44,731 nucleotides of DNA from a virus: the IMG/VR virus record IMGVR_UViG_3300035698_016751; one strand, given 5' to 3'. Below are positions 9,998 through 25,909 of the stretch, one piece after another (position 1 is the first letter of the stretch; each line of letters begins with the position of its first letter). The translations under genes were made by a program, and so were the position numbers. The notes under the pieces were generated by a model. It had not been told where the DNA came from. It made no database searches and saw only the letters and a program-made list of their open reading frames with translations.

Positions 9998-10075
9998 TTT
10001 ACAAATCTTTCTATTTGTTCTATCATGTATGAATGGAAATAATAGTAAAAATTATAGGGGTAATTCTGTATTTTT

Positions 10076-10525: not shown

Positions 10526-10535
10526 GTTTTTTAGG

Positions 10536-10563
10536 TTTACAACCATGAAGATTAGTCTATAAT
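10536..10563 (+). promoter_or_regulatory. sigma70-like promoter GGTTTACAA-N-GTCTATAAT
   Basis: -35 TTTACA at 10536-10541 and -10 TATAAT at 10558-10563 with a 16-nt spacer. Almost identical in extended sequence to the promoter at 25924-25951. Confidence 0.45.
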
Positions 10564-10614
10564 TCTAACTGACCGTATACTATATCCGACTAACGCAAAA
10601 CAAGGAGACCAACA

Positions 10615-12444
10615 ATGCGTATGTTTAAGATGTTTACAATGATGTTTGTGCTGGCTGCTGTGGCTGTTCCGATGATGGGACAGGCGAAACCCGCTTCGAT
10701 GTTCGCCGAGTTGGATAAAGTCCAAGTCCAGCCCGTAAAAGATACGGCTCAGAAGAGATTCGGTTGTATTACGTGGGGTGCTGATGCTGCTACGTTTCTG
10801 GCCAACGGCGGCTTGGAAACAACTAAGGATTCAGTCTATGGGAAGATGGGTCTGAATATTAAGCTCGTTAAGAGTGATGACCCTGTGGCTCAGGTTCGTA
10901 GTTATTTGGAAGGCGATACTCCGGTACTTCGTATGACTTCGAGAATGCTTGGGATGGCTAGTGAAAAGATTGGTCGTGACCCACGCACGAAGCCACATGT
11001 ATTCCTTCACCTTTCTTTTTCTCTTGGCGACCATATCGTTTCACGGGCCAACTTTAAGACCTTGAATGATATGAAGAAAAATGGTAATAAAAAATTCAGG
11101 ATTGCATGTCAGCAGGGTGGACCCCACGTTGGACTTATTTATGATGCACTGTCTGCTGCTGGAATCCCCAAAGACGATGTTGAAATTGTTTGGGTAAAAG
11201 ATTTGACTGGCCCCAATGGTCCTGCCGAGGCATTTAGGAAAGATGAAACAATTGATGCGTGTTGCGTCATTACTCCTGATATGCTTGGGTTGGTTGGTGA
11301 CGGCATCGGTTCAGGCAAAGAAGGAACAATTAAAGGCGCACATGTCCTTGTTTCGACAGCACAGATGTCTCGTTCGATAGCAGACGTATATGTGGTACGG
11401 GATGATTGGTATCAGAAGAATCGTGCTGTTATTGAGAAGTTCGTAGCTGGTTATCTGAAAAGTTGTGTCGATGTAGTAAAAATGAGAAATGATTTCGAAA
11501 AGACGGGTAAGCTTACGCCGCAGTATAAAAAATTGCTTACTACATGTCAGACAGTATTTGGAAAAGAAGTTATTCCTACGCTAGAAGTTGATGGTCATGG
11601 ATTGCTTCTTGATTGTGCCTTCGTTGGATTGCCGGGACAGATTGCGTTCTTCGAGGACGCTGGTAATCTGAATGGATTCGAAAAGAAAATGGCTTCGGCA
11701 TTGGACTTGGCAACGACTTGGGGTTACGCCTCTAAACGTTATGGTTTCAATCCATCTGGGTTGGAGTATAAAGCTATTGCAACACTTGCTGGAATTAAAT
11801 ACGAAACACCGAAGCGTACCAATCGTATTAAGGCTGAGTCCATCGACGTATTCCCCGGCAGTGAAATGGATGAGATTGTTTCTTTCACTATTCAATTCCA
11901 ACCGAATCAGGATAAGTTTTCAGTTGACCAGTATGGTGATGAATTCCGCCGTGCAATGAAGTTCGCAAGTACGTTTGGTAATGCGGCTGTAGTAGTGGAA
12001 GGCCATTCAGACCCGACAAAGACACTTGTGACTTTGCTGAAATCTGGAATTAAGAAGGGACTGATTAAAAGAACGGGTACGAAAGCAAAGGGATATAGTT
12101 ACTTCCTTTCTGGAAAGCCTCTTGATTTGAAGCAAACAGGTAATATTGTCGAAATGATTAAGAGTGGAGCTTTCGGCGAGGATGCTGGTAACACGATGCA
12201 AGCTGCATTGAACCTGTCGGCTGTTCGTGCAAGTACAGTTAAGGCTTCCATTGTGAAAATGGCTGCTGCTGAAAAGATTACGTTTGATGCAAGTCAAATT
12301 AAGCATGTGGGTGCTGGCATCATGAAGCCTGTCGTATCTAAGCCAAGAAATATTGCAGAAGCAAAGCAAAATATGCGAGTCGAAATTCGAGTGATTAAAA
12401 TCCCCGCCGAAGCAATCAACAGCAGTGAAGATTTTGATTATTAA
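10615..12444 (+). CDS. secreted NMT1/SsuA-like substrate-binding-domain protein fused to a C-terminal OmpA-like peptidoglycan-binding domain (609 aa)
   Basis: Sec signal peptide MRMFKMFTMMFVLAAVAVPMMGQA. The central region has SBP-like periodicity of the NitT/TauT family type. The C-terminal VVVEGHSDPT...LSAVRASTVK...RVEIRVIK fits an OmpA_C-like domain. Strong AAGGAG SD. Confidence 0.55.
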   Translation: MRMFKMFTMMFVLAAVAVPMMGQAKPASMFAELDKVQVQPVKDTAQKRFGCITWGADAATFLANGGLETTKDSVYGKMGLNIKLVKSDDPVAQVRSYLEGDTPVLRMTSRMLGMASEKIGRDPRTKPHVFLHLSFSLGDHIVSRANFKTLNDMKKNGNKKFRIACQQGGPHVGLIYDALSAAGIPKDDVEIVWVKDLTGPNGPAEAFRKDETIDACCVITPDMLGLVGDGIGSGKEGTIKGAHVLVSTAQMSRSIADVYVVRDDWYQKNRAVIEKFVAGYLKSCVDVVKMRNDFEKTGKLTPQYKKLLTTCQTVFGKEVIPTLEVDGHGLLLDCAFVGLPGQIAFFEDAGNLNGFEKKMASALDLATTWGYASKRYGFNPSGLEYKAIATLAGIKYETPKRTNRIKAESIDVFPGSEMDEIVSFTIQFQPNQDKFSVDQYGDEFRRAMKFASTFGNAAVVVEGHSDPTKTLVTLLKSGIKKGLIKRTGTKAKGYSYFLSGKPLDLKQTGNIVEMIKSGAFGEDAGNTMQAALNLSAVRASTVKASIVKMAAAEKITFDASQIKHVGAGIMKPVVSKPRNIAEAKQNMRVEIRVIKIPAEAINSSEDFDY

Positions 12445-12493
12445 ACAACGACGATAACTGGTCACAATAAAACCTCGATGGAGATTTGAAATC

Positions 12494-13372
12494 ATGAAAA
12501 TGAAAAGTATTTTAGCTACGGCTCTTGTGTTTATCTTGAGTACGGTAGTAATGGCAGAACAAAACGTAGTAATAGTGTTGGATGATTCTGGGTCGATGAA
12601 TGACCCGATGCGAAAGAATGGCAAGGTTCTAAGAATCAATGCGGCGAAGACGGCACTCCATACAGTAGTCAACCAGATTTCCCCTGACACAAAAGTTGGC
12701 ATTGTTCTTTTGAACAAAGGTTGGATTGTTCCTCTTTCTAAAATTAACAAAGTAGACTTGAACAATAAAATCGACTCTATTGTTCCGGCTGGTGGAACTG
12801 AGCTTGGAAAAAGTATGAAAATCGGAGCGGATGCTCTTCTGACTGTAAGAGCGAAAGAAGGGGTCGGTGTTTATAAGCTCTTGATTGTAACAGATGGAGA
12901 AGAAAGTGATACGGCATTAGTAAACAAGTATCTGCCCGATATGATACGGAAACGAATAACCGTGGATGTGATTGGCGTAGATATGAAGGGCAATCATAGT
13001 TTGGCTACCAAAGTCAATCAGGGCCGATACAAAAGTGCTGATGATGTTAAGGCAATCACCGCTGCAATTTCAAATGTGTTTGCTGAAAGCACAGGCGGCG
13101 CAGATGATATCGGAGATTATGAAGTAATTGCAGCAATCCCAGATGAAATTGCTAAGTCCGCTATTATGGCATTGACACATACTGACAATACCCTTATCGG
13201 TGAAAAACCCAAAACTGCCAGTGCTAAAGCTAGAGCCAGAGCATCTGTTGTAACGGGTCAGGAAACGATTGAGGGAATGGGTGTTGGTTGGTGGGTTATT
13301 ATCATAATGGGTTCAATAATAGGCATGATTGCTATCGTTCTAATCGGCAAAGAAATTGGGCTAATATCATAA
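12494..13372 (+). CDS. von Willebrand factor A (vWA) domain membrane protein
   Basis: Signal/TM segment at the N-terminus. The vWA MIDAS motif is VVIVLDDSGSM, with later TDGEE. C-terminal TM anchor WWVIIIMGSIIGMIAIVLI. Confidence 0.65.
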   Translation: MKMKSILATALVFILSTVVMAEQNVVIVLDDSGSMNDPMRKNGKVLRINAAKTALHTVVNQISPDTKVGIVLLNKGWIVPLSKINKVDLNNKIDSIVPAGGTELGKSMKIGADALLTVRAKEGVGVYKLLIVTDGEESDTALVNKYLPDMIRKRITVDVIGVDMKGNHSLATKVNQGRYKSADDVKAITAAISNVFAESTGGADDIGDYEVIAAIPDEIAKSAIMALTHTDNTLIGEKPKTASAKARARASVVTGQETIEGMGVGWWVIIIMGSIIGMIAIVLIGKEIGLIS

Positions 13373-13383
13373 GGGGCTTAAAA

Positions 13384-14913
13384 ATGGCAAGAGGTAAATT
13401 TGTAGCAGCAGTAATTGTTTTTATGGTCTTCGTTGGTATCGCTTCAGGCGTGTATAAGTTGTGGCTTGTCCCTACTAAGGAACGAGCGGATGAAAAGATA
13501 CAGGCAAAGAAAGACGAAACCGAAGCCAAAGAAAAACAGGAACTTATGAACCTAACTAGTTCTGATTCTCGATACGATTACAACATTAACTTTGCTATTG
13601 ATTCATTCAGTGGTTATGCGGTGTGTCGTTCTGAAACATTCAAAAAGGAACTGACCAATCGAAGAATCAAATTGAATCTTGTCGATGATGGTGCAGATTA
13701 TGCGTCACGGCTACAGAAGTTAAAATCGGGCGATATTCAAATGGGCGTTTTCACTATTGATGCCCTTATTAAAGCCTGTGCTGATGATAAGTCTGTTCCA
13801 GCTAGTATCGTGTATATTGTTGATGAAACAAGAGGCGCAGATGCTATGGTGGCTTACAAAGATGCGTTCCCGAATTTGGATGCATTGAATGACCCAGATG
13901 TAAAATTTATTCTTCCAAAAGGCTCTCCTGCTGAAACACTTGCTAGGGTTGTAATGTCGAATTTCAATCTTAGGAATTTGAAAAACAATCCTTTTATCTT
14001 CGTAAAGGATGCCAAAGCTGTTTATGAGGCGTATAGAAAAGCGAAGCCCGGAGATAAGAATATCTTTGTTCTTTGGGAACCGTATGTGACAAAACTTCTT
14101 GAAAATCCGAATACGCATGTTCTTGTGGATAGCGGTAGATTTCGGGGTTACATTGTTGATGTAATTGTGGCCAATAGAGATTTCCTTGCAAAGAACAAGG
14201 AAGTAGTTCAGACATTTGTTGAGTCGTATTGTCGCTCATACTATAAGAAGAGCGGAATGATGCTGCCAGTTGTTATTGAAGATGCTAAAAAATCAGGACA
14301 ACCTCTTAGTCCAAAAGCGGGTAAACGTCTTGTAGATGGTGTTTGGTGGAAGACTACACCAGAAAATAATATTCACATGGGTCTTGTAGAAGGTGAACTT
14401 CAACATATAGAAGATATAATTTTGAATATTACCAAGGTGCTGAAAACAACAGGTGCCATTGACACAGACCCAACAGACGGAAATCCTAATATTCTTTATT
14501 TTAAAGGTATTCAGGAACAGATGATAAAAAATAATTTCCGTCCCGGCATGGCTGATGAATCAGTGCGAGAAGATAAAATTATTCTTTCTGCACTATCAGA
14601 TAAACAATGGGAAGACTTGATTCCTATTGGTCAGTTGGATGTTCAACCTGTAGTGTTTGGTCGTGGTACAAGTCGAATTTCCTCTATGGGAAAAAATGTA
14701 TTAAAAAATCTTATGGAAACACTAAAAACGTGTCCTAAGTTTTACGTTCTAATTCGTGGTAACGGCGGTGATGCTGAATTGGCAAACAGTCGTGCAACGG
14801 CAGTAAAAGAATTCCTGATTTCGAATGGGGTAGGCAAGAACAGGGTTCGTGCAATAGCTGGAAAACCGTCTAACTCTACTTCTGTGGACTTTGTATTAGG
14901 GCAACAGTTCTAA
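13384..14913 (+). CDS. membrane-anchored NMT1/SsuA-like substrate-binding-domain protein with a C-terminal OmpA-like domain (509 aa)
   Basis: Start reassigned to ATG 13384 (AAGGGG SD), because the track start at 13288 overlaps the vWA gene. N-terminal TM FVAAVIVFMVFVGIASG. SBP-like core. C-terminal YVLIRGNGGDAELANSRATAVKEFLISNGVGKNRVRAIAGKP is OmpA-like. Confidence 0.5.
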   Translation: MARGKFVAAVIVFMVFVGIASGVYKLWLVPTKERADEKIQAKKDETEAKEKQELMNLTSSDSRYDYNINFAIDSFSGYAVCRSETFKKELTNRRIKLNLVDDGADYASRLQKLKSGDIQMGVFTIDALIKACADDKSVPASIVYIVDETRGADAMVAYKDAFPNLDALNDPDVKFILPKGSPAETLARVVMSNFNLRNLKNNPFIFVKDAKAVYEAYRKAKPGDKNIFVLWEPYVTKLLENPNTHVLVDSGRFRGYIVDVIVANRDFLAKNKEVVQTFVESYCRSYYKKSGMMLPVVIEDAKKSGQPLSPKAGKRLVDGVWWKTTPENNIHMGLVEGELQHIEDIILNITKVLKTTGAIDTDPTDGNPNILYFKGIQEQMIKNNFRPGMADESVREDKIILSALSDKQWEDLIPIGQLDVQPVVFGRGTSRISSMGKNVLKNLMETLKTCPKFYVLIRGNGGDAELANSRATAVKEFLISNGVGKNRVRAIAGKPSNSTSVDFVLGQQF

Positions 14914-15656
14914 TGGATGATGTAAAGAAAAAAGTATTATTGGATTTGACTTCTTCTCCGGTATCCCTTGGACCTTTGACGATAGGTATATGCCTATTGA
15001 TGGGTGCGTGGGCATTGAGTAGTTCATTTATTGGGTTTCTTGGTGTTTGTGGGATTCTAGCTGGTGCAGCTATGTTCATTATTCGATTAATTTTTCAAAT
15101 GGACAAGTTGACAGCACAGGCCCAGAAGTGGCGGTTAAGTAGCGACTCAAAGAAAAGAGAAATAAAGCTTGACGAACTTGATAATAAACTTTGTAATGAT
15201 TTAGACCCTCGAACAGAAACAGCATTGAGAGACCTGCGTGAGTTACATGCTGATTTCAAAAAACACATTCGTAATGGCACAATAAAAGGACAAATTGGTT
15301 CAATAATTGGCGATAGCGTAGATACTTTGTTCCATGGTTGTGTAGCTCAATTAAGTCAGTCTTTTGAAATGTTCAAAGCGGCAAGAACGATGCATGGGAA
15401 ACAAAGAACCGAAATTAGTAAACAAAGAAAAGCAATTGTTGATGATGTAGTAAAAAGCATTGAAGAACTAGGAATGACAATTTCTAAGTGTTTCAAACTG
15501 GCGACTCATAAAATTTCTGACATGGCACAGGCACGAAAAGAATTACAACTGACCATGGAATCGGTAGCAAGAGCAGAACAACAAACAGAAGATATCATAA
15601 ACGGTAATCCCGATTATGATGAGGATGAATTCCTACAAGAAGTACCAGAAGAATAA
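14913..15656 (+). CDS. membrane protein with a cytoplasmic coiled coil (247 aa)
   Basis: Two TM helices near the N-terminus, then a coiled-coil region. ATG overlaps the upstream stop (TAATGG). Confidence 0.4.
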   Translation: MDDVKKKVLLDLTSSPVSLGPLTIGICLLMGAWALSSSFIGFLGVCGILAGAAMFIIRLIFQMDKLTAQAQKWRLSSDSKKREIKLDELDNKLCNDLDPRTETALRDLRELHADFKKHIRNGTIKGQIGSIIGDSVDTLFHGCVAQLSQSFEMFKAARTMHGKQRTEISKQRKAIVDDVVKSIEELGMTISKCFKLATHKISDMAQARKELQLTMESVARAEQQTEDIINGNPDYDEDEFLQEVPEE

Positions 15657-15659
15657 AAC

Positions 15660-16157
15660 ATGAACGAATCAATTGCACAATTTTTGGTCCAAAATGATGA
15701 AGATGACAACGATGTGTTAAATCGTCCGTTATTTGATGTCAACATGCGGCTTTATAAAAACAATGTACATTATCGTACTGTAATTAATGATGCAATACGA
15801 TATATGGTATTTGTCCTGAAACAAAAATTTAATGATTATGGTAAGTTAAAAGGTATTTCTGGGGCTAACTTAGGCATTCCTTGGAACATTATCGCTTATT
15901 ATAATAATTCAGTGATGGTAATGATTAATCCTAAAATCACTGAAGCATGGTCCCCCGTTAAAGTGCTGAGCAATTGTGGTTCTTTGCGGCTTCCAGAAAG
16001 CATTAAGGTAGAACGACATGCCTTTATCATTTGTGAATGGTATGATACCAGTGGACAGTTACATAAAAAGGAATATGATAGAGACCAAGGTAGTCTGACA
16101 ATACAACATGAAGTTGAACACAACCAAGGCGTTTTAATAACACAAAAAGGACTATAA
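15660..16157 (+). CDS. def: peptide deformylase
   Basis: All three PDF motifs are present: GISGANLGIPW (G.G.AA.Q), SNCGSLRLP (EGCLS with the Cys ligand) and QHEVEHNQG (QHE.DHL.G, the HExxH metal site). Confidence 0.7.
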   Translation: MNESIAQFLVQNDEDDNDVLNRPLFDVNMRLYKNNVHYRTVINDAIRYMVFVLKQKFNDYGKLKGISGANLGIPWNIIAYYNNSVMVMINPKITEAWSPVKVLSNCGSLRLPESIKVERHAFIICEWYDTSGQLHKKEYDRDQGSLTIQHEVEHNQGVLITQKGL

Positions 16158-16303
16158 ATGTTTCAAAGATGGGTTAAGAATCTTTTCGTTAGAAATAAGG
16201 CTTATAAGGCTGATAAGGCAAGAACTGTGTTCTTTCAAAAAGCTAGTAAAAGAATAGCACAAGAAGTAGAAATGCGGCAGGCAAAATTTTTATTAGATTA
16301 TCG

Positions 16304-16331
16304 TTTACAGGAATAAAAAAAGTCCTACAAT
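16304..16331 (+). promoter_or_regulatory. sigma70-like promoter TTTACA-N16-TACAAT
   Basis: -35 at 16304-16309 and -10 at 16326-16331, about 50 bp upstream of ATG 16381. Confidence 0.4.
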
Positions 16332-16380
16332 ATAAACAACCAAGACGTATCGTGTAACTTAAAAAGGAAAAGGAATCACA

Positions 16381-17193
16381 ATGTTTAAAGCACTTTTTAG
16401 ATGGATTAAGGGAATCAAGTATCTATGGACTGGCAAGATTGATAAGGCCCGTGAAGAACTTGATATGAACCCGCATGTCATGAATGCCACGTATGATGAA
16501 ATTCTTGAACAGAAAAAGAATAGAATTCATCATTACAAAGACGCCATTTCTGCGATGGTTCACAGCAACGAGAAAAAGAAACAAATTCTCACAAATCTGA
16601 CGGAAGATGTCCAAAGACTTGAGAAACTGAAAAAGGGCGCAGCCGCAAAAGCCAAGAAAGTTGCCGCTACTCATAATGGTGTAAAAGCCGCATGTATGGC
16701 TGACCCTGAGTACGTAAGATGCTCTTCAGCGTACACCGACTTCTCTTCTACGCTAGAAGAAAAGCTAAACAGAATCACTGAACTCGAAGCCGATATTGAA
16801 GAGAAACTCCAAAATATCGACGGACATAAAATTCAAATCAAGAATCTCATCCGTGACCGTAAAAAGATTCAGGAAGAGAAGCACGAAGCTGTTGCAGATG
16901 TCCAAGGCGCACAGCACGAAAAAGAAATTGCGGATATGCTTACGGGCATCGCCAACGATACAACTTCCGCAGACCTTCAGCGTATGCGTGATATGCGTGG
17001 GAAAGCAAAGGCTAATGCTAAAGTCAGCAGCGAACTCGCAGGTCTGGATACTGATAGAGAAGAGTCTGACTTCCTTGAAGAAATTGCTGCTTCCGAATCT
17101 AATAGCGAATTCGAAAGCCTGATGGATTTCCAAGAAGACGAAGCGGAAGAAGGGATTGCGGCTCCGATAGAAGAAACTCAAATACCTGAATAA
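16381..17193 (+). CDS. PspA/IM30 (Vipp1/ESCRT-III-like) family coiled-coil protein
   Basis: The N-terminal amphipathic MFKALFRWIKGIKYLW and the 250-aa heptad coiled coil with an acidic tail resemble PspA ([25 protein letters not shown]...). Confidence 0.4.
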   Translation: MFKALFRWIKGIKYLWTGKIDKAREELDMNPHVMNATYDEILEQKKNRIHHYKDAISAMVHSNEKKKQILTNLTEDVQRLEKLKKGAAAKAKKVAATHNGVKAACMADPEYVRCSSAYTDFSSTLEEKLNRITELEADIEEKLQNIDGHKIQIKNLIRDRKKIQEEKHEAVADVQGAQHEKEIADMLTGIANDTTSADLQRMRDMRGKAKANAKVSSELAGLDTDREESDFLEEIAASESNSEFESLMDFQEDEAEEGIAAPIEETQIPE

Positions 17194-17333
17194 TAAGGAA
17201 TAATAAAAATGGGTAAAGGAAGAGATACAAGACCGAAGAAGAGTAAGAAGAAAAAAGAGAAGAAAATAAAGCCGAAAAAGTAATCGTGCCAAATTAATTG
17301 GCTTCCAAAATGTTCTATTGAAAGGGACTAGTA

Positions 17334-18398
17334 ATGAAGAATGCAAAGATGATGATTATGGCGTTGATGGTGTCGGTCATGGCGGTCGTAGGTTGTGGTG
17401 CAAAGAAATCAGAAAATATTACGAAGGCACCGGAAGGCATGAAGGTCGTAAAGCTGGCATGGAGCGAATATCCTTCGTGGTCCGTTTTCGGCGTTGCTGA
17501 TTTGCGTGAAATCGTGGATGGCCGAGAAGGTTGGGTTAGTCCTCTTGAGAGGAAGTACGGGCGTGACATTGTACTGGTTCAGGCAGATTATGACACCTGT
17601 ATAACGCTGTACGGTAGCAATATGGTGGATGCTGTTTGTATCACGAATATGGACACGCTTGCCCCGGCATTGAGTCGTGATTCCGTTGCAATTCTTCCGA
17701 CTTCAACGAGTGATGGGGCAGATGCTTGTATCGTTACTAATATAAGTAATTTGGATGATTTGGAAGGCAGAAAAACGTATGGGCTTGAAAAGTCAGTAAG
17801 CCAGTATGCACACGAACGGAATATCGAAATCGCAGGTAGGTCTGTTGCTGACTTCCCGTTTGCTCAGATGGACCCTTCTGCTGCTGCACAGGCAATGCAA
17901 ACAAATCAGAAGGGCATTGATGCCATTATGGTTTGGAATCCTTTTGTGTTGCAGACACTTCGCACTCGTGATGGAGCCACTGTCTTGTTCGATTCAACAA
18001 CTATCAAAGAAGAAATCATTGATATGGTTGTTATGGGCAAAGATGCAGTAGACGAGAAATCTGCCTGTCTTATTATTGAAGCGTTTTACGAAGTTCAGAA
18101 ACTTCTGGCCGACCCGAAGGAAACCGATGCAACGCATGTAGCTTTGGGTGCCAAGTTCTCAAATCTTGGGCTGGCCGATATGAAGATTGTTTTGAAACAG
18201 ACGAAGTGCTATAAGACTCCCGCCGAAGCACTTGCCCTGTTTAACTCGCCGAAATTCCAGAATGAAATTATGCCTAGGGTTGTCAAATTCTGCTCTGAGC
18301 ATGGTATGCTGGACAAGAAGGTGACTGTTGGGTTTAATGACATGGACGCACAGGTAAACTTCTCATCTGATTATATTAACAAAGTCAAGAATCAGTAA
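17334..18398 (+). CDS. ABC transporter substrate-binding lipoprotein, NitT/TauT (SsuA/TauA/NMT1-like) family
   Basis: Lipoprotein signal with lipobox MAVVGCGAKK. SBP fold features. Immediately upstream of a permease and an ATPase of the same family. Confidence 0.6.
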   Translation: MKNAKMMIMALMVSVMAVVGCGAKKSENITKAPEGMKVVKLAWSEYPSWSVFGVADLREIVDGREGWVSPLERKYGRDIVLVQADYDTCITLYGSNMVDAVCITNMDTLAPALSRDSVAILPTSTSDGADACIVTNISNLDDLEGRKTYGLEKSVSQYAHERNIEIAGRSVADFPFAQMDPSAAAQAMQTNQKGIDAIMVWNPFVLQTLRTRDGATVLFDSTTIKEEIIDMVVMGKDAVDEKSACLIIEAFYEVQKLLADPKETDATHVALGAKFSNLGLADMKIVLKQTKCYKTPAEALALFNSPKFQNEIMPRVVKFCSEHGMLDKKVTVGFNDMDAQVNFSSDYINKVKNQ

Positions 18399-18420
18399 AC
18401 GAGTTTCCCAGACACACAGA

Positions 18421-18457
18421 GGCGGCTCTTCGGAAACGGAGAGCCGCCTTATTTTTT
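18421..18457 (+). terminator. rho-independent terminator
   Basis: Stem GGCGGCTCT / AGAGCCGCC around TCGGAAACGG, followed by TTATTTTTT. Confidence 0.75.
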
Positions 18458-18459
18458 GG

Positions 18460-18488
18460 TTTACAAGTGACTGTAAACTCCCTACAAT
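18460..18488 (+). promoter_or_regulatory. sigma70-like promoter GGTTTACAA-N-CTACAAT
   Basis: -35 at 18460-18465 and -10 TACAAT at 18483-18488, directly after the terminator and ahead of the permease gene. Confidence 0.4.
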
Positions 18489-18510
18489 GACCCTAGAAAG
18501 AAGGTGACAA

Positions 18511-19308
18511 ATGGTTGGCGATGCCATATCAAAAAAGAAACGTATCACTATTGGAATTTTGTCTTGTGTGATTTGTTTAAGTGGATATTTGTGGATGTCA
18601 CACAAACAGCATCAAATTAACAAGAAAGATACTACCCTCCCTACTTTATCTCAGTTCGGTGAAGGGATAGAAAAAATAACGACAAGAGATGCTGCCGGGG
18701 ATGTGTGGGTCATTGATGACTCAATAGCAACGGGTGGACGACTCATTTATGGATTTGCTGTTGGAGTTATTATATTTGCTACTCTAGGTGTGCTGATGGG
18801 GTGTTATCAACCCATGTCCGCATTCTTTTTGCCGCCGATTAATTTTCTTTCTAAAATACCACCTACAGCTATGCTTGCTGTGTATTTTGTTTTGTTTGGA
18901 ATTGAAACACAATTGTTTGTAGCAATGATTGCCTTGGGTATTGGACCGACATTAGCAATGTCTATCTACGATTCAGTAAACAAAGATGTAAAAGACCATG
19001 CTCTTTACAAAGCCTATACGTTGGGTGCTTCTCATATGGAAGTTGTGTACGAAGTAGTATTCAAACAGATTCTTCCTAGAATCATTCAAAATATCCAATT
19101 GCAAATTGGGCCAGCTATGGTGTTTCTTATTGCGGCTGAATGGATGATAGCAGATATGGGATTCGGATATAGATTGCGAATACAATCTCGATTGCTTAAT
19201 ATGAACGTGGTATATTTGTATCTGTGTTTACTTGGTCTTGCGGGATTTGGCTTTACTTGGGCATGTACTTTTTCTCGTAGAAAACTGTGTGGATGGTTTG
19301 GAGAATAA
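18511..19308 (+). CDS. ABC transporter permease (SsuC/TauC-type, binding-protein-dependent inner-membrane component)
   Basis: Six predicted TM helices. Gene order SBP-permease-ATPase. Confidence 0.65.
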   Translation: MVGDAISKKKRITIGILSCVICLSGYLWMSHKQHQINKKDTTLPTLSQFGEGIEKITTRDAAGDVWVIDDSIATGGRLIYGFAVGVIIFATLGVLMGCYQPMSAFFLPPINFLSKIPPTAMLAVYFVLFGIETQLFVAMIALGIGPTLAMSIYDSVNKDVKDHALYKAYTLGASHMEVVYEVVFKQILPRIIQNIQLQIGPAMVFLIAAEWMIADMGFGYRLRIQSRLLNMNVVYLYLCLLGLAGFGFTWACTFSRRKLCGWFGE

Positions 19309-19310
19309 AA

Positions 19311-20216
19311 ATGACAGATACAAATAATGTATTGGAAATAACTGGTGTGACGCACGGCTTTGGTCCCAAAAGAGTTCTGAATAATATTAATTTTGGAATT
19401 AAAGCAGGTCAAATTACTGCTATTGTGGGACCAAGTGGTTGCGGCAAATCCACATTGTTTAGAGCCATTCTCGGAACACATCCCCCTCAAGAGGGAACAA
19501 TATGTGTAGACGGTAAAGAAATGAATGGTCCGTCCGAAAAAATAGGAATTGTGTATCAGCATTATTCACTATATGATTTCCTTACTATTGGGGAGAATGT
19601 GATGTTTGGTCTTAAACTAGACCAGACATCTATCCCAGATAGAATCTTTAAGTATTTCTCATGGAGAAAATTGAGAAATAAACATAGAGCTAAAGCGGCT
19701 GAAATGTTGGAAGTAGTTGGGCTTCCTAATACTATGAGTTCATATCCAAGTGAACTTAGTGGTGGTATGAGACAAAGAGTAGCAATCGCACAAGCTCTAG
19801 TTATGAGGCCAAGTATTCTTCTTCTTGATGAGCCATTTGGTGCTTTGGATGCAGTGACGAGAATGAGTTTGCAAAGATTGTTGCTTCGTTTTTATCAAGA
19901 AAACTTGGAAGCTAAAAAAAGAGGCGAACGTCCCCCTCATACCGTCATTATTGTTACTCACGAATTGGACGAAGCTATTTATGTGAGTGATAGAATACTT
20001 GGTCTATCACAATATTATGAGGGTGCTGATGGGTCAAAGATTGTGTATGACAAACCTTCTCCTGTGTTTAGACCGGATGAGCCAGCAGATACAGATTCCT
20101 TTATGGAACAAAAGACGGAAATTACACATACAGTTATGGATGCTGATTACTGTCAATCGTATCAAGAATGTTTGACAGATTGGAGTAAACGAGCCTCCGA
20201 AGAAGGCCGAATATAA
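19311..20216 (+). CDS. ABC transporter ATP-binding protein (SsuB/TauB/NrtD-type)
   Basis: Walker A GPSGCGKST, ABC signature LSGGMRQRV, Walker B ILLLDEPF, H-loop VTHE. Start reassigned to ATG 19311 (GGAGAATAAAA SD). Confidence 0.8.
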   Translation: MTDTNNVLEITGVTHGFGPKRVLNNINFGIKAGQITAIVGPSGCGKSTLFRAILGTHPPQEGTICVDGKEMNGPSEKIGIVYQHYSLYDFLTIGENVMFGLKLDQTSIPDRIFKYFSWRKLRNKHRAKAAEMLEVVGLPNTMSSYPSELSGGMRQRVAIAQALVMRPSILLLDEPFGALDAVTRMSLQRLLLRFYQENLEAKKRGERPPHTVIIVTHELDEAIYVSDRILGLSQYYEGADGSKIVYDKPSPVFRPDEPADTDSFMEQKTEITHTVMDADYCQSYQECLTDWSKRASEEGRI

Positions 20217-20217
20217 C

Positions 20218-20412
20218 ATGAAAGATATTCTAACAAATATTCTAATTTATTTCGACTTGATAGTTACTATCGGTTTTGTCATCGCTAAGTTAAATGGCGG
20301 CATTACATGGAATTGGTGGTGGATTTATGTTGGGTTGTGGGGACCAGCTATACTGACAATCATAGCCGCCATGATAGCCAATGTTATAGACGAAGTGAGA
20401 TATTGTGCGTAA
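20218..20412 (+). CDS. small membrane protein (64 aa, 2 TM)
   Basis: Hydrophobic Trp-rich ORF, translationally coupled to the ATPase gene. Confidence 0.35.
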   Translation: MKDILTNILIYFDLIVTIGFVIAKLNGGITWNWWWIYVGLWGPAILTIIAAMIANVIDEVRYCA

Positions 20413-20601
20413 ACAAGAATTTATCGACAATTACGTGGCTACTTTCCTTGCAACATTTTCGGCTATACATTATGATGATTACTGTAGCAGAGGATTACAT
20501 GAAGAATTCCACAATCAACCAGTTGAAGATGCTGAGCATCTGGCTGAGTTGGCGTGGAAAAGTTTAGAAGAACACAAGGCTTGAATCTGGAGAAAATAAA
20601 A

Positions 20602-21546
20602 ATGTCAAAAGTAGTAATGATATTGGGCTACCCTGCTTCATCGAAGGGGACACATGCCGAAGCATACATCGCTGATGGATATGTCCATCTGAATAGAGAT
20701 AAAGAGGGTGGTAAGGTTGTCTCATTATTGCCTAAGATGGAAGAAGCAATCAATGCCGGGAAAGATGTTGTTTTAGATAACCTGTTTCCTAATATTGAAT
20801 CGAGAAAACCATTTGTTGAATTGGCACATGCAATGGGTGTTGAGATTAGTTGTGATTGGATGTCAACTAGTCTGGAAGATTCACAAATAAATGCTCTTCA
20901 CAGAATGTGGAAAAGGTATGGTCAACTTTTCCTTGACCCAGCTTCTTTGAAAGCTGCGTCCGCTGATGTGAAAAAAGACTCTAATATGTTTCCGATTGTT
21001 GTTTTGTTTAAGTATAGAAAAGAGTTTGAAAAACCCACTACAGCCGAAGGGTTTTCTGTAGTAAACAAAATTCCGTTTAATCGTAACTACGATGAAAACT
21101 ATACGAATAAGGCTATCTTTTTTGATTATGATAACACACTAAGAACCAATACTGGAAATGGTAAATATCCAGTTCATCCAGATGAAGTTGTTTTGATGCC
21201 GGGAAGAAAAGAGAAAATAAAACAACTGCTGGATGAAGGGTGGTTACTTCTAGGTGTGTCGAATCAAGCTCCTATTGCAAGGAAACAATTGACAGAGGAA
21301 AATGCGATAGCTTGTTTTGATAGAACTAACGAATTGCTTGAGGCTGATATCGAAGTTGTGTATTGTCCTCATAGTGTTCCCCCATCATGTTATTGTCGCA
21401 AGCCACAAAGCGCACTTGGTGTATATTTTATCGAAAAACATAAACTGGACCCAAGAGAATGTATATTCGTGGGTGATATGACAACTGACCGCACATTCGC
21501 CTCAAGACTAAATATACCTTTTGAATATGCGAAAGATTTTTTTTAA
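20602..21546 (+). CDS. polynucleotide 5'-kinase/3'-phosphatase (T4 Pnk-like)
   Basis: N-terminal P-loop kinase MILGYPASSKGT. C-terminal HAD phosphatase motif I FFDYDNTLR, later LLGVSNQ and VGDMTTD. Start at ATG 20602 with a GGAGAAAATAAAA SD. Confidence 0.7.
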   Translation: MSKVVMILGYPASSKGTHAEAYIADGYVHLNRDKEGGKVVSLLPKMEEAINAGKDVVLDNLFPNIESRKPFVELAHAMGVEISCDWMSTSLEDSQINALHRMWKRYGQLFLDPASLKAASADVKKDSNMFPIVVLFKYRKEFEKPTTAEGFSVVNKIPFNRNYDENYTNKAIFFDYDNTLRTNTGNGKYPVHPDEVVLMPGRKEKIKQLLDEGWLLLGVSNQAPIARKQLTEENAIACFDRTNELLEADIEVVYCPHSVPPSCYCRKPQSALGVYFIEKHKLDPRECIFVGDMTTDRTFASRLNIPFEYAKDFF

Positions 21547-21617
21547 ATCATTTTCTTCTTAAATAGACATATATATGTTTGTAATACAAATATGTATTTA
21601 TCTATAAGGAGAAGGAA

Positions 21618-22409
21618 ATGCGGAAAATGAGAAATATATCCAAACAAAGATTTGGGAGACTTGTGGCAATAAAAAGAGTAGCCAACAATGATAAACATAA
21701 TAAGACTCAATGGTTGTGTAAATGCGATTGTGGAAAAGAAACAGTAGTAATTACTTCATCGTTGACAGGAGGGTTAACAAAAAGTTGTGGTTGTTTACAT
21801 AAAGAATCTATGTCCATAACAGGTAAAAAAAAAGTTAAAAAGTTGGACGGACAAAGGTTTGGAAGACTTCTTGTTTTGGAAAGAGATTATGAATATCAAA
21901 AAAAGAAAAATAGTTGTTCTGCTTATTGGAAATGTAAATGTGATTGTGGTCAAGAAAAGACTATTTGCGGTTCTAATTTAATAAGAAAAAGAGGAACCAA
22001 AAGTTGTGGTTGTTTGGCAAGAGAAATGACCACTGAACGTAACATAATACTTTTTTCTAAAAAAGATGGTGTGGCGGCTCAGAATGCCATATACTATCGT
22101 TACAAACGTGGTGCGAAGTTAAGAAATTTAAGTTTTGATTTATCTGTGGAAGAGCTTAATAGTTTTTTACAACAAAATTGTTTTTATTGTGATAGTGAAC
22201 CTAGCAATAGACATAGAAACAAACGAAAAAACTTAATACATGATTATAGCTATAATGGGATAGATAGAAAAAATAATAAAAAAGGTTATTCTTTAGATAA
22301 TTGTGTCCCCTGTTGTAGGATTTGTAATAAAGCGAAAGATGTTATGTCTTTGAAAGAATTTGCAGAATGGATACAATCTGTTCAAACGTCGTCTTGGATA
22401 ATTAATTAA
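21618..22409 (+). CDS. HNH homing-endonuclease-like protein with a duplicated N-terminal module
   Basis: Two tandem copies of QRFGRL(V/L)..(K/E)R....W(L/K)CKCDCG(K/Q)E..(V/I)....L..G.TKSCGCL. The C-terminal HNH core is CFYCD...GIDRKNNKKGYSLDNCVPCCRICNKAK. Confidence 0.7.
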   Translation: MRKMRNISKQRFGRLVAIKRVANNDKHNKTQWLCKCDCGKETVVITSSLTGGLTKSCGCLHKESMSITGKKKVKKLDGQRFGRLLVLERDYEYQKKKNSCSAYWKCKCDCGQEKTICGSNLIRKRGTKSCGCLAREMTTERNIILFSKKDGVAAQNAIYYRYKRGAKLRNLSFDLSVEELNSFLQQNCFYCDSEPSNRHRNKRKNLIHDYSYNGIDRKNNKKGYSLDNCVPCCRICNKAKDVMSLKEFAEWIQSVQTSSWIIN

Positions 22410-22420
22410 GATGTACATGG
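22403..22420 (+). promoter_or_regulatory. phage-type promoter box AATTAAGATGTACATGG
   Basis: Member of the TGTACAT family, 20 bp upstream of ATG 22440. Confidence 0.5.
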
Positions 22421-22439
22421 TGTGATAAGGACTTCTTTA

Positions 22440-24293
22440 ATGGCTAATAAGTATAAATTCTTTTCTAAATTTGGTAAGATTATAAATTCTGGGCAATCAC
22501 GTAGTATTGTTTTATATGGCAATGTGAGTGACTTGTTTTGGGATGGTGAAAAATATAGTCCAATCATTCCGTTTATGTTAAAAAAGACGGAACCAGCCAA
22601 TCGAATACAGATTGTGTATGAACTGAATGGTCCCATTAGGATTTCAGAAGAAGACAAAGCGTTACTTAAAGCTAGTTGGATTCAATGGAAAGCTGGAGTT
22701 GATATAAACGATTTGATTCTTAAGAATCTTCGTATTGATATCGCAAATATAAAAAAGGGAATTGTCAAAGATAGTCCCGATGAAAAATGGGGAAGAGAAT
22801 TTGACAATTATATGAATCGTGCGATTGGCAGTCCGGGTCAAGCATTAGAATTCATGAGGCAAATGTGTATTGCCTCCAGAACATGTCCTATCAAAATATT
22901 GGACGCAAATGGGAAAGAAGTTAGCCGAAGAAGTCTTTTGTTTTTCATTGAGGGAGCAGACATGTTGCTCCCTACCGGGAAGGGTGATATTTCTAGTCTT
23001 AAAGATGCACAATTAAGAAGAATATTTATTGTGCAGGATTGGTTTAGTGATGCCGATTTTGTGAATGGGCGTGATACGGTCTGTTTTATCGCCGAATCCC
23101 CCAGTTTAATTCATGAACGAATTTCTAAGATGCCGCAAGTTATCAGTGTCGAAGCTCCATCACCGGACACAAAGCAACGAGCGCATTACATAGAAAAATT
23201 TTGTGAATTTACTAAATGGGACAATCCGTGGAAAGATAGAGGTAGTTTGTCTGTAGCTACTGCTGGACTTTCTATTCATGCTTTGAGACAACTTCTTATT
23301 GGTGCGAAACATGAAGGAAATTCTTTAAACTATTCTGTTGTCATTGACAAAGTTGAAGAATTTATCAAATCACAACTCGGAGAAGATGTTATAGAGTTTA
23401 AGAAACCGGAGCACAAATTAAAAGATGTTGTAGGTGCTACTACGGTAAAGAACTTCATTAAAAATTATCTGATTAAGAAATTCACAACGGATGATAAAAA
23501 GAAATCTATATCTGGATGTGCGGTTGCTGGTTCTATAGGTTCAGGAAAGACCTTTATATTTGAAGCAATGGCTGCTGAGTTGGGAATGGTTGTTTTAGTG
23601 TTGAAAAACCTCCGTAGTCAATGGTTTGGGGGAACTGATGTAATTTTTGAGAGATTGAAACGTGTATTGCTGGTTCTTGAAAAAGTGTGTATCTTCGTTG
23701 ATGAAGCCGATACACAATTTGGTGGAGTAGGTGCAGGGGAACATTCTACAGAACGTAGATTGACGGGCAAAATACAAGCAATGATGAGTGATACCAAATT
23801 AAGAGGAAAAATAATTTGGTTGCTTATGACTGCTCGTATTAATTTGTTGTCGGCTGATATCCGCAGACCGGGACGTGCTGGTGATTTAATCATTCCTATA
23901 TTTGACCCTGAAGGGGATGACAGAAAAGAATTTGTTGCGTGGGCATTGAAATCTTCAGTAAAAGGAAGGCAAGAAGAGGAAAAAGCGAATATTTATGATG
24001 CAATAGATAAGATACTTCCTTCAACATATTCTGCGGCATCATTTGCTTCTTTGGTATCATACTTAGCAGATTATGAAGATGAGGAACTGACTCAGCAAAG
24101 AATTGTTGAGTTAGTGCAAGATTTAATTCCTGCTGATATTGGTGAAACAAGAGAGTATCAGAAACTACAGGCGTTGATAAATTGCACACGCAAATCTTTG
24201 TTGCCACCTGAGTATCAAGATAAAGATATAACGGAATTAAAAGACGCTTGGCGACATGAAATTCAAAAGCTTGAATCAGAAGGTATAAAATAG
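22440..24293 (+). CDS. AAA-family ATPase with a degenerate N-terminal AAA-like half
   Basis: C-terminal half has Walker A GSIGSGKT, Walker B IFVDEAD and the classic AAA second region of homology with RRPGRAGDLIIPIFDP. The N-terminal half has degenerate P-loop-like and DE-like segments (IVLYGNVSD, LFFIEGAD). Confidence 0.7.
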   Translation: MANKYKFFSKFGKIINSGQSRSIVLYGNVSDLFWDGEKYSPIIPFMLKKTEPANRIQIVYELNGPIRISEEDKALLKASWIQWKAGVDINDLILKNLRIDIANIKKGIVKDSPDEKWGREFDNYMNRAIGSPGQALEFMRQMCIASRTCPIKILDANGKEVSRRSLLFFIEGADMLLPTGKGDISSLKDAQLRRIFIVQDWFSDADFVNGRDTVCFIAESPSLIHERISKMPQVISVEAPSPDTKQRAHYIEKFCEFTKWDNPWKDRGSLSVATAGLSIHALRQLLIGAKHEGNSLNYSVVIDKVEEFIKSQLGEDVIEFKKPEHKLKDVVGATTVKNFIKNYLIKKFTTDDKKKSISGCAVAGSIGSGKTFIFEAMAAELGMVVLVLKNLRSQWFGGTDVIFERLKRVLLVLEKVCIFVDEADTQFGGVGAGEHSTERRLTGKIQAMMSDTKLRGKIIWLLMTARINLLSADIRRPGRAGDLIIPIFDPEGDDRKEFVAWALKSSVKGRQEEEKANIYDAIDKILPSTYSAASFASLVSYLADYEDEELTQQRIVELVQDLIPADIGETREYQKLQALINCTRKSLLPPEYQDKDITELKDAWRHEIQKLESEGIK

Positions 24294-24297
24294 TTTC

Positions 24298-24326
24298 TTG
24301 AAAATGCTTGTTTGCTGTCCCATAAT
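24298..24326 (+). promoter_or_regulatory. sigma70-like promoter TTGAAA-N17-CATAAT
   Basis: -35 at 24298-24303 and -10 at 24321-24326, upstream of ATG 24345. Confidence 0.3.
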
Positions 24327-24344
24327 AGATAGGAAGGAAGAAAA

Positions 24345-24602
24345 ATGTTATCCATGATAATTGCATCAAACGCACACGCACAACTAATATGGGAATTTTG
24401 TATAATATTTTTTGGTAGCTTGGCGTCAATCGGAATAATATGGTTCATATGTGCGGCCTCCGTTGAATGGTGGCAAGACCACCAAGCACAGAAAGAATAT
24501 AAACGGTATAGGGCACAACAAAAGAACAGACAAATTAAAAGGCAGAAATTGCCAAGTAATAAAAATGCACATGCCATTAATGCTTGGAGAAAAAAGACCT
24601 AA
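24345..24602 (+). CDS. small membrane protein with a basic tail (85 aa)
   Basis: Two hydrophobic helices, then a K/R/Q-rich C-terminus. Confidence 0.35.
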   Translation: MLSMIIASNAHAQLIWEFCIIFFGSLASIGIIWFICAASVEWWQDHQAQKEYKRYRAQQKNRQIKRQKLPSNKNAHAINAWRKKT

Positions 24603-24787
24603 TGAAACCTAAACCTAAACCTAAACCTAAACCTAAACCTAAACCTAAACCTAAACCTAAACCTAAACCTAAAGATATATTTACATTACGTCATAAATCA
24701 GAACAGGAGTTGCAGCAAGATATGTTTACACTCCTGTTGAATAGGGGAATGCTCCCCGGTTATGTTGTATTGCCTAGAAAAAAATAG
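24602..24787 (+). CDS. small protein with an N-terminal (Lys-Pro)11 repeat
   Basis: ATG 24602 overlaps the upstream stop (TAATG). The repeat is encoded by (AAACCT)11. Confidence 0.4.
   Translation: MKPKPKPKPKPKPKPKPKPKPKPKDIFTLRHKSEQELQQDMFTLLLNRGMLPGYVVLPRKK
24605..24670. repeat. perfect hexanucleotide microsatellite (AAACCT)x11
   Basis: 66 bp of exact AAACCT tandem copies, in frame within the CDS. Confidence 0.95.
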
Positions 24788-24953
24788 GAGAATGTGATGG
24801 AAGTATTTAAATCAATAATATGGTCTAAAGAGGACAGCCATTATCTAAAACAATTAGATAAGTGGATGACCCTTTGTGAGCGTGAAGAACTTGAACTGAC
24901 CTGAAAAAGAGATTAAGGCTGCGGCTCGTTTTGCTAGAGGTTGGGGTGAAAGA

Positions 24954-25208
24954 ATGAGTGCAGATAATATCTCTGAATCTCATAAGGTGTGGCAAAAAAT
25001 ACGTAAATTAATGAAGCAACAAAAAGCTGATGCTGTTAAGCTTGAAGCAAATCTCCCAGATACAGCAGATGGACTGATAGCACGTCCTAAACAGGCTATG
25101 ATTTGTTTACAAGAATCTGCTGTTGAGGCAATGGGAGATATAGATGAAGTAACCGCTTTGGTTTATGGGGCCATGGAGCTTATGAACGGCTATGGAGCTT
25201 TTCCATAA
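24954..25208 (+). CDS. hypothetical protein (84 aa)
   Basis: ORF only. Confidence 0.3.
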   Translation: MSADNISESHKVWQKIRKLMKQQKADAVKLEANLPDTADGLIARPKQAMICLQESAVEAMGDIDEVTALVYGAMELMNGYGAFP

Positions 25209-25270: not shown

Positions 25271-25909
25271 ATGAATGCACTAGTATTAGTAGACATCCAG
25301 CCTACCTTCATGCCCGGAGGTGGCTTGCCAGTTCCGAAAGGTGACGAAGTAGTTCCGGTGGCCAACGAAATGATTAAAAAGTTTGAGGCTGCTGGGGATA
25401 TTGTAGTCGTAACACAGGATTGGCACCCTGAAGACCACTGTAGTTTTGCAGAATGCTACAAAGGGCCAGATGCCCCATACGCAATTTTTGATAAAGTGGT
25501 TACACAAGGAGTCGAACGTACATTGTGGCCCAAACATGGTGTACAAGACACCGCAGAAGCAGAACCCCATCCCGATTTGAAATTAAGTGAATCGACCATA
25601 TTTATTAAAAAAGGTATGGACCCAAATGTTGATAGCCATAGTGCATTCTGGGGCCACGCACGACAAACCAATACTGGCCTCGCTGCCAAGCTTCGTGAAG
25701 CTGGGGTTTTGCCGGGAAGCAAGGTATTTTTCTTGGGTCTTGCAACAGGTGTTTGTCTAATTCTTTCAGCACTCGATTCAGTTGAAGAAGGCTATGAAAC
25801 AATAGTAATCATTGATGGATGCCGTGCGATTTCGTCCGAAAGTCACCGTAAAGCTGTAGCCGACATGGTTGATGCAGGAATATCAGTTGTGTTTTCCCGT
25901 CACGTATAA
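25271..25909 (+). CDS. pncA: nicotinamidase / pyrazinamidase (isochorismatase fold)
   Basis: Aligns along its length with E. coli PncA. LVLVDIQPTF matches LLLVDLQNDF (catalytic Asp), VTQDWHPEDH matches ASQDWHPANH (metal-binding His), K at the FIKKG position, and the catalytic Cys in FLGLATGVC matches MGLATDYC. Confidence 0.8.
   Translation: MNALVLVDIQPTFMPGGGLPVPKGDEVVPVANEMIKKFEAAGDIVVVTQDWHPEDHCSFAECYKGPDAPYAIFDKVVTQGVERTLWPKHGVQDTAEAEPHPDLKLSESTIFIKKGMDPNVDSHSAFWGHARQTNTGLAAKLREAGVLPGSKVFFLGLATGVCLILSALDSVEEGYETIVIIDGCRAISSESHRKAVADMVDAGISVVFSRHV

Follow-up and report, generated by a model that had tools for sequence, protein, structure and literature searches.

Is the ABC importer encoded in IMG/VR virus record IMGVR_UViG_3300035698_016751 a nutrient-uptake system in its own right, or a part of something larger? 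The window, by which we mean the whole 44,731-nt stretch of DNA that was analyzed, carries in order genes for a solute-binding protein (SBP), a permease and an ABC ATPase, which a sequence-only reading had treated as a phage-borne operon at 17334-20412. The three open reading frames (ORFs) are where that reading placed them and are intact, and they encode, as it proposed, a complete three-component NitT/TauT-type importer, based on the fold matches of the SBP, a BPD_transp_1 domain in the permease and intact ATPase motifs. The boundaries of the operon, however, had been drawn too narrowly, as the genes are part of a nine-gene module. Since SBP orthologues lie almost always inside this fixed module, the importer is not a self-contained operon; judged from sequence comparison, it is one arm of a conserved membrane-stress module (PspA/ESCRT-III plus AAA+) and not a free-standing nutrient-uptake operon. 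Our best explanation, to which we give a probability of roughly 0.6, is that the SBP, permease and ABC ATPase form a working type-I importer that serves as the transport or solute-sensing arm of this envelope module, whose role would be to keep or reshape the host inner membrane.

Gene order around the importer

We fetched 80 genome loci and six viral contigs encoding an SBP relative, and mapped the window proteins onto 91 loci. Across these loci the order of genes was 609-aa protein, VWA protein, OmpA protein, a protein with two transmembrane (TM) helices, PspA-like protein, SBP, permease and ABC ATPase, with a classical AAA+ gene positioned either before the first module gene or after the last. 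The three SBP-homologue contigs first inspected read AAA protein, ~610-aa protein, VWA, OmpA-family, ~245- and ~268-aa proteins, SBP, permease and ATPase, and gene order was the same in chromosomes of 0.3–12.7 Mb. In the window the module spans 10615-24293 in the same order, with four insertions. Its nine genes are given below, where occurrences refer to the 56 “full” loci, i.e., those with at least 7 kb of upstream and at least 2.5 kb of downstream flank:

10615..12444, + strand: 609-aa secreted protein with a signal peptide, an SsuA/NrtA-like solute-binding domain and a C-terminal OmpA-like peptidoglycan-binding domain (53/56)
12494..13372, + strand: VWA-domain protein, 292 aa, with a signal peptide, a DxSxS MIDAS motif and a C-terminal TM anchor (Pfam VWA 1e-10, hydropathy; 54/56)
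13384..14913, + strand: ~509-aa protein with an N-terminal TM anchor, an SBP-like middle and a C-terminal OmpA-like domain (Pfam OmpA 1.1e-6; 54/56)
14913..15656, + strand: 247 aa, a pair of TM helices at the N-terminus followed by a helical part in the cytoplasm (hydropathy)
16381..17193, + strand: PspA/Vipp1-like (ESCRT-III superfamily) protein, 270 aa (profile, fold model)
17334..18398, + strand: SBP, 354-aa lipoprotein, sister family of TIGR03427 (profile, conservation, fold model)
18511..19308, + strand: ABC importer permease, 265 aa, BPD_transp_1, TauC-like (Pfam, NCBIfam, hydropathy; 55/56)
19311..20216, + strand: ABC ATPase, 301 aa (Pfam ABC_tran, motifs; 52/56)
22422..24293, + strand: 623 aa, C-terminal AAA+ ATPase domain of the classical VCP/Cdc48/Vps4 type; N-terminal half conserved, with no fold assigned

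The permease, VWA, OmpA, 609-aa and ABC ATPase genes occurred all together in 50 of the 56 full loci. The PspA-like protein was present in 45 and the 2-TM protein, at its conserved position, in 44, with at least one of the two in 54, and an AAA+ protein adjoined the module, upstream or downstream, in 38. A PspA-less variant, in which the SBP gene comes immediately after the 2-TM gene, was seen in eight Pirellulaceae/Planctomycetales loci (L005, L021, L022, L035, L050, L052, L053, and L063) and also in L010, L082, and L085.

None of the module genes shows decay. Compared with low-GC (guanine plus cytosine) relatives, every one of them had a ratio of nonsynonymous to synonymous substitution rates (dN/dS) of 0.08–0.28, with 0.11–0.17 for the SBP, permease and ABC ATPase, indicating purifying selection; pseudogenization in related phages, a possibility raised from the sequence alone, was checked and is absent. 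The close relative L092 shares 82–89% protein identity with the window for most module genes and 72% for the 2-TM protein. Purifying selection on all nine genes extends down to ~43% protein identity in phages, which argues that the parts work together and matter in infection.

The same data bear on the alternative that the three ABC genes are a stand-alone auxiliary metabolic operon, importing a nutrient or cofactor precursor (nicotinamide/nicotinate, sulfonates, taurine or a nitrogen source) independently of their neighbors. That the importer is complete and intact speaks for it, as does a full Preiss-Handler NAD route 5–10 kb downstream, where the salvage genes that had been reported there were all located:

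25271-25909, + strand: PncA, nicotinamidase-like isochorismatase
26014-27225, + strand: PncB, nicotinate phosphoribosyltransferase (NAPRTase)
27368-29134, + strand: NadE, glutamine-dependent NAD synthetase
29508-30380, + strand: NadD-like candidate, cytidylyltransferase-like with a MazG-like N-terminus

However, none of the 91 loci had a significant match (E ≤ 1e-5) to PncA, PncB, or NadE, and the NAD genes are unlinked in close relatives too, so the proposed tie between importer and NAD salvage proved peculiar to the window; nicotinamide uptake was rejected because it has no conserved linkage to NAD genes. The SBP orthogroup is, moreover, almost never found outside the module, and the aromatic and Asp residues of its pocket (see below) are unlike those of sulfonate or nitrate binders.

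Transcription signals cut both ways for a metabolic operon. The following sites were recorded:

10536..10563, + strand: promoter-like site TTTACA-16-TATAAT (11/12) just 5′ of the first module gene (consensus match only)
18419..18450, + strand: intrinsic-terminator-like hairpin of 14 bp, 9 of them G-C, followed by a T run, between the SBP and permease genes
18460..18488, + strand: promoter-like site TTTACA-17-TACAAT before the permease gene (hexamers identical in L092)

The hairpin (fold −32.4 kcal/mol, z −5.6) has counterparts in L092 (z −5.5) and L094 (z −4.4), and both it and the promoter-like site between the SBP and permease genes recur in close relatives, lending the ABC genes some transcriptional autonomy. 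Yet the hairpin, the sole strong terminator-like site in the region examined, lies inside the ABC gene set; taking it as the operon end was rejected because the permease and ABC ATPase genes come after it. In ABC importer operons such an internal hairpin is the usual means of making the binding protein in excess over the membrane complex, and the arrangement is better explained by differential expression of the SBP than by an operon end. The operon's supposed own promoter and terminator were not recovered: there was no promoter-like site on the + strand upstream of the SBP gene (17193-17334) and no terminator-like site beyond 20412, and promoter-like sites in the region (52) were no commoner than in shuffled sequence (43.1, standard deviation 6.4). 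The highest-scoring promoter consensus match within 10000–25000 is the one at 10536..10563. Weighing both sides, we consider an independent metabolic operon quite unlikely.

The spacing around the SBP gene varies. Phage-type copies of the module (loci L006, L011, and L029) have 500–800 bp between the SBP and permease genes, which in L011 includes a 148-aa ORF, whereas cellular copies have a few bases. The window spacer between the PspA-like and SBP genes contains a 24-codon lysine-rich ORF, MGKGRDTRPKKSKKKKEKKIKPKK, at 17209-17283 (+ strand), and L092 has an unrelated 37-codon ORF there.

A proposed envelope module and its relatives

The non-ABC members of the module were characterized mainly by profile and fold comparison. 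The 609-aa protein, which begins with a signal-like helix, matched OmpA-like structures (1.7e-5, the domain being split) and SsuA/NrtA (3e-5 to 2e-4) in a profile search of the PDB; profile-profile comparison of its family with the SBP family was co-linear and not significant. The middle region of the ~509-aa OmpA protein, for which the listed ORF opens at TTG 13288 and Met 13384 is the likely start, aligned co-linearly with the SBP (BLASTP E 7e-5). For the PspA-like protein, the top four profile matches in the PDB were Vipp1/PspA (E 0.004–0.005, over two co-linear stretches), as were all of the top nine Foldseek PDB matches of its AlphaFold2 (AF2) model (mean predicted confidence, pLDDT, 78.7); PF04012 was weakly matched by 14 of 32 members, and some homologues are named PspA/IM30 at NCBI. 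The 623-aa protein matched Pfam AAA at 8.3e-11 and VCP-like proteins of the PDB, by profile, at 9.5e-29, and its N-terminal half had no significant match in the PDB. The 2-TM profile returned only noise from the PDB. Searching PADLOC-DB with the module proteins gave generic ABC-ATPase and coiled-coil matches only and no specific defense-system match.

Because it joins peptidoglycan-bound periplasmic proteins and inner-membrane proteins to a cytoplasmic ESCRT-III-type protein with an AAA+ ATPase, the module is predicted to span the envelope. In the periplasm there would be three NitT/TauT-type binding domains, one in the unfused lipoprotein SBP, which would dock on the permease, and two fused to OmpA-like domains, plus the membrane-anchored VWA protein. 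The permease and the 2-TM coiled-coil protein would sit in the inner membrane, and the ABC ATPase, the polymer-forming PspA/Vipp1-like ESCRT-III protein and the classical AAA+ protein, which plausibly remodels or disassembles the polymer, in the cytoplasm. The lipoprotein SBP would hand a small cation to the permease and ATPase, while the two OmpA-fused binding domains and the VWA protein would anchor the system to the cell wall; the 2-TM protein might recruit the PspA-like polymer, which the AAA+ ATPase would turn over. If the two halves are physically coupled, the transporter could supply a solute needed under membrane stress, or its transport cycle could signal the periplasmic state to the remodeling half. 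With a module copy of its own, a huge phage that takes long to complete infection may keep the host inner membrane and proton-motive force intact, or reshape the membrane, once host expression fades.

Several points weigh against this explanation. A PspA-like gene was not detectable in the cluster in 11 of the 56 full loci, where PspA may be dispensable or encoded elsewhere. No link of the 2-TM protein to Snf7/PspA was established, as hhalign gave a probability of 9% for its profile against the PspA-like profile. The N-terminal half of the 623-aa protein was not shown to be a dead AAA domain, its resemblance being at motif level and by eye only (IVLYGNVSD, FFIEGAD). Finally, we infer the function of the module as a whole from its domain content.

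A related operon type has been described by comparative genomics, in which a protein of inactive and active classical AAA+ domains accompanies PspA and a divergent, membrane-anchored Snf7 (Ravi et al., 2024, mSystems; PMC11237479). In one extension of it an ABC ATPase, a permease and a SIG+PBPB+OmpA protein are added (example OGG56892.1 from Candidatus Handelsmanbacteria), and the authors propose membrane remodeling tied to solute transport (PMC11237479). The window module resembles these operons in its PspA-like protein, membrane-anchored helical protein, classical AAA+ protein, ABC ATPase and permease, and secreted fusion of solute-binding and OmpA-like domains, and its 247-aa 2-TM protein sits where the published type has a “TM+Snf7” protein. 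It differs in gene order, in the added VWA protein, in a second SBP-like plus OmpA-like protein with a TM anchor and in a separate lipoprotein SBP, which gives three binding-protein domains vs. one. The published type is, further, a comparative-genomics prediction, and the window module type occurs in huge phages as well as cells. With the Psp, Lia and Vipp1 systems (PspFABC, LiaIH, Vipp1) the module shares a PspA/Vipp1-fold protein adjoining membrane-anchored partners; unlike them it has no PspF, PspB/C or LiaI and has a Cdc48/Vps4-type AAA+ protein, a transporter and peptidoglycan-binding proteins. What draws attention to the AAA+ partner is a 2025 review in which Vps4-like regulators of ESCRT-III were said to appear absent from bacteria (PMC7619361); the pairing of a PspA/Vipp1-type protein with a classical AAA+ protein bears on how PspA polymer dynamics are regulated in bacteria.

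Our literature search found no report of the module in phages and nothing relevant on complete phage ABC importers; all that the Jug-phage paper mentions is a pspA-like gene neighboring terD. A similar operon type was thus already described in bacteria, whereas for carriage of the module by phages we found no earlier report.

Lone binding proteins such as PstS are carried by phages. In those cases as here part of a transporter is on the phage, but the window has a full importer within a larger, non-metabolic module. If the importer belongs to an envelope module, gene-by-gene catalogs of auxiliary genes in huge phages would mislabel it as nutrient uptake, and the transporter would have to be counted as a membrane-remodeling or envelope-stress part; the locus gains interest when read as a PspA/AAA+ envelope module carried by phages rather than as an importer of nutrients. 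A bolder form of our explanation, which we regard as doubtful, is that a huge-phage lineage carries a complete ESCRT-III-like machine, made up of a PspA/Vipp1-type polymer, a membrane nucleator and a Vps4-like classical AAA+ protein and wired to peptidoglycan-anchored sensors and a cation importer. Rather than only buffering stress, the phages would use it actively to reshape the host inner membrane, for example by building or maintaining a replication compartment or by timing envelope failure. If true, no virus of bacteria would have been shown before to possess an ESCRT-like system of its own, and the module would provide a handle on PspA polymer disassembly in bacteria.

The importer proteins and a candidate ligand

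The SBP was placed by fold. Its signal peptide terminates in VVGC, with Cys21 invariant across 54 homologues, in agreement with the lipobox first noted. No curated family model (Pfam NMT1, NCBIfam SsuA_fam or similar) was reached: there was no Pfam match, and thus none to NMT1; the top NCBIfam match, TIGR03427 (1.3e-41), scored 142.9 bits vs. a cut-off of 333.9, with SsuA_fam second, and TIGR01728 scored 41.5 bits, below its cut-off of 163.5. Homologues carry the JGI label NitT/TauT SBP. Of the ~1,755 detectable homologues, the best 120 have 53–79% identity, and many of them are on megabase-sized contigs. Sequence and profile searches of the PDB returned nothing even at E ≤ 1, so a fold search was needed. 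An AF2 model built from 54 sequences (pLDDT 94.5) had TauA, SsuA, Thi5, ThiY, and NrtA as its best PDB folds (E 1.9e-18 to 1e-10, identity ≤19%), and on these matches the modeled SBP is assigned a class II periplasmic-binding fold of the TauA/SsuA/NMT1 type. A fold search of the BFVD viral structure library found generic binding-protein folds only and no close structural relative.

The permease exceeded the BPD_transp_1 cut-off (PF00528; 2.8e-9, 37.4 bits vs. 26.4), and its best NCBIfam matches were TauC (3.9e-20) followed by SaoP, SsuC, and NtrB, all under their equivalog cut-offs. Six TM helices had been predicted; our hydropathy scan supports five as clear peaks, and the sixth is probable. 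The ABC ATPase matched ABC_tran (PF00005) at 1.9e-36 and has intact Walker A (GPSGCGKS), signature (LSGGM) and Walker B (ILLLDE) motifs. It starts at ATG 19311, 2 nt past the permease stop and behind a GGAG ribosome-binding site, in favor of which the listed GTG 19287 was rejected.

Clues to the ligand came from an exhaustive search that yielded 787 cluster representatives related to the SBP. Full-length relatives at 26–31% identity proved to be true TIGR03427 members, 9 of 10 over the cut-off, with scores of 332–537 bits. GimA (Sll1080), a NitT/TauT-family SBP encoded beside a guanidine hydrolase, binds guanidine with a dissociation constant of ~97 nM, and its proposed site, from a docked model, consists of W59, W62, and F205 (cation-pi) plus D135 and D233 (PMC12704784). 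In TIGR03427 members the residues W, W/Y, D, W, D are spaced by 3, 76–77, 69–71, and 28, compared with 3, 76, 70, and 28 in GimA, and the same alignment columns in the SBP hold W49, F52, D130, W201, and D230, four of which are invariant in the SBP orthogroup while F52 is at least 90% conserved. Because these conserved aromatic and Asp positions match GimA, a small cation is favored over sulfonate, nitrate or nicotinamide, the uptake of which, as first proposed, finds no support. Our best guess from these residues is that the SBP binds a small guanidinium-, amidinium- or ammonium-type cation, and the conserved GimA-like pocket makes for a concrete and cheap ligand test.

Arguing against this ligand, the SBP was mapped onto GimA by residue spacing in TIGR03427 members, without the GimA sequence, and the GimA site is itself a docking model; the SBP score is also far under the TIGR03427 cut-off. 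No guanidine riboswitch, guanidine or urea carboxylase or GdmH was linked to the module, whose conserved neighbors are module genes only, and Rfam searches of the window (gathering threshold), of its 10–25 kb region (permissive) and of seven cellular loci found no riboswitch.

Two known importers serve as points of comparison. GimABC of Synechocystis (Sll1080-1082) is likewise a three-component NitT/TauT importer, and the five guanidinium-contact positions are conserved in kind in the SBP; unlike GimABC and the TIGR03427 family, which is termed “urea carboxylase-associated,” the window SBP, at 26–31% identity, is a lipoprotein in a PspA-module context. TauABC and SsuABC of Escherichia coli are alike in fold, as the SBP model matches TauA (6ssy; E 1.9e-18, TM-score 0.64–0.77) and SsuA (2x26), and the permease is nearest TauC, but the low identity (≤19%), scores far under the equivalog cut-offs and pocket positions not suggestive of a sulfonate site set the window importer apart.

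The match of the pocket to GimA and the proximity of the SBP to TIGR03427 could also be explained by a system that scavenges guanidine or a related cation and that adjoins the PspA, AAA+, VWA, and OmpA genes while being functionally independent of them. Such independence sits poorly with a gene order that is fixed across phyla and in phages and with two more paralogous SBP-like domains in the cluster, and neither guanidine-degrading enzymes nor guanidine riboswitches are found nearby; we think it unlikely.

Phage or host origin and inserted genes

Most cellular carriers of the module belong to the Pirellulales or to other Planctomycetota, the cultured Aeoliella straminimaris and Bremerella cremea among them; some are Verrucomicrobiota and Myxococcota. 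The cultured Pirellulales make it genetically testable. The proposal that a phage carries the genes is supported by the resemblance of the genome to a huge phage (clamp loader, Major Vault Protein [MVP]-like matches, GC 0.39). One of 50,697 phage records, the 595-kb huge phage LR756511.1, was the only carrier in that collection and holds the whole module in the same order; six IMG/VR contigs (42–436 kb) also carry it. A megablast of the 12 kb around the importer found no match in the phage collection.

Could the window instead come from a bacterial island, or from a cellular contig that was wrongly assembled or binned, the module being simply a host cluster? The module is native to Planctomycetota, the relative L029 is filed under a bacterial metagenome-assembled genome (MAG) and no capsid, portal or terminase gene was found in the 44.7-kb window, a gap that also counts against our own explanation. 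GC content, however, is 0.41 in the module and 0.38 in the rest of the window, as opposed to 0.56–0.63 in cellular loci, and phage-type genes are present (helicase phrog_1967, clamp loader, anti-restriction protein, polynucleotide kinase/3′-phosphatase [PNK], and HNH). Within the phage collection the clamp loader matches only LR756511.1, and the MVP-like protein only LR756500.1 (462 kb) and LR756501.1/LR756503.1 (735 kb), near the record starts and from the same study as LR756511.1. The six module-bearing IMG/VR contigs likewise argue against host DNA, as does L029 itself (CALFYV010000090.1), a 546-kb contig filed as a Bacteriovoracaceae MAG, which has a GC of 0.39 and the phage-type PNK insertion, clusters with the window in trees and probably derives from a huge phage whose contig was binned with a bacterial MAG. 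We therefore regard a host origin of the window as very unlikely. Because virion and packaging genes are absent from the window, its phage origin rests on huge-phage similarity and composition, and is well supported but not proven.

In unbootstrapped neighbor-joining trees the window grouped with L001, L011, and L029 inside Pirellulales sequences; a further point on the opposing side is that these trees put other viral copies elsewhere, so that the viral copies do not form one clade. As part of our best explanation as a whole, the module is probably native to Planctomycetota-like bacteria and was captured, once or several times, by a huge-phage lineage, in which it shifted to low GC, received the PNK insertion and kept all its genes.

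Genes that interrupt the module in the window, along with one small neighbor of the first, are as follows:

15660..16157, + strand: peptide deformylase, inserted between the 2-TM and PspA-like genes (Pfam Pep_deformylase 1.3e-10)
16158..16316, + strand: basic 52-aa protein, kept only in the closest low-GC relatives
20218..20412, + strand: 2-TM ORF of 64 aa, specific to the window genome, starting 1 nt past the ABC ATPase stop
20602..21546, + strand: PNK, between the ABC ATPase and AAA+ genes (Pfam PNK3P, AAA_33)
21618..22409, + strand: Cys-rich protein, 263 aa, window-specific insertion (no Pfam match; absent in L092)

The 64-aa ORF had been described as a small 2-TM protein coupled to the end of the operon. 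It does exist at that place, and together with a 59-aa ORF it makes up an insertion at 20218-20584, but it has no counterpart in the 91 related loci or in L092 and was rejected as a transporter subunit because it is not conserved. A deformylase at the corresponding place is absent from all 91 loci and from the close relatives L092-L094. PNK is found at its position only in phage-type copies (the window, L092, L006, L008, L009, L011, and L029), which makes it a shared derived feature, and among the window insertions (deformylase, 64- and 59-aa ORFs, PNK, Cys-rich protein) it is the only one that L092 has. Weak similarity to the Cys-rich protein occurs elsewhere in L008 and L009. At the place of the 52-aa protein, L092 and L093 have similar ORFs of 46–49 aa, with a common VFFxKA..IA motif seen by eye.

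RNA-repair-type genes bracket the module, with the T4-Pnk-like PNK inside it and a 2H phosphoesterase (10076-10525, + strand) and an HNH endonuclease (9362-9997, + strand) just upstream; the latter two also lie upstream of the module in the 436-kb IMG/VR contig L011. Just 3′ of the AAA+ gene, a 67-aa ORF (24584-24787, + strand) contains eleven consecutive KP dipeptides.

Elsewhere in the window, the 874-aa MVP-like protein (1447-4071, + strand) contains a vault repeat along with a shoulder domain of the Major Vault Protein type (1.3e-23). We take the MVP shoulder domain to be SPFH/band-7-like. A band-7 link to PspA has been noted (Ravi et al., 2024; PMC11237479), and the 874-aa protein may belong to the same membrane theme. 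A tRNA search of the window found none. The anti-restriction match (phrog_7245, 4.4e-64) lies at 40974-41885 (+ strand). The helicase phrog_1967 is split over 33999-35069 and 37115-38233 (+ strand), which cover profile positions 149–387 and 390–668; the ~2 kb between the halves holds three ORFs with no family match (35082-35474, 35505-35927, and 36186-37097), and the arrangement looks like a gene interrupted by an inserted element.

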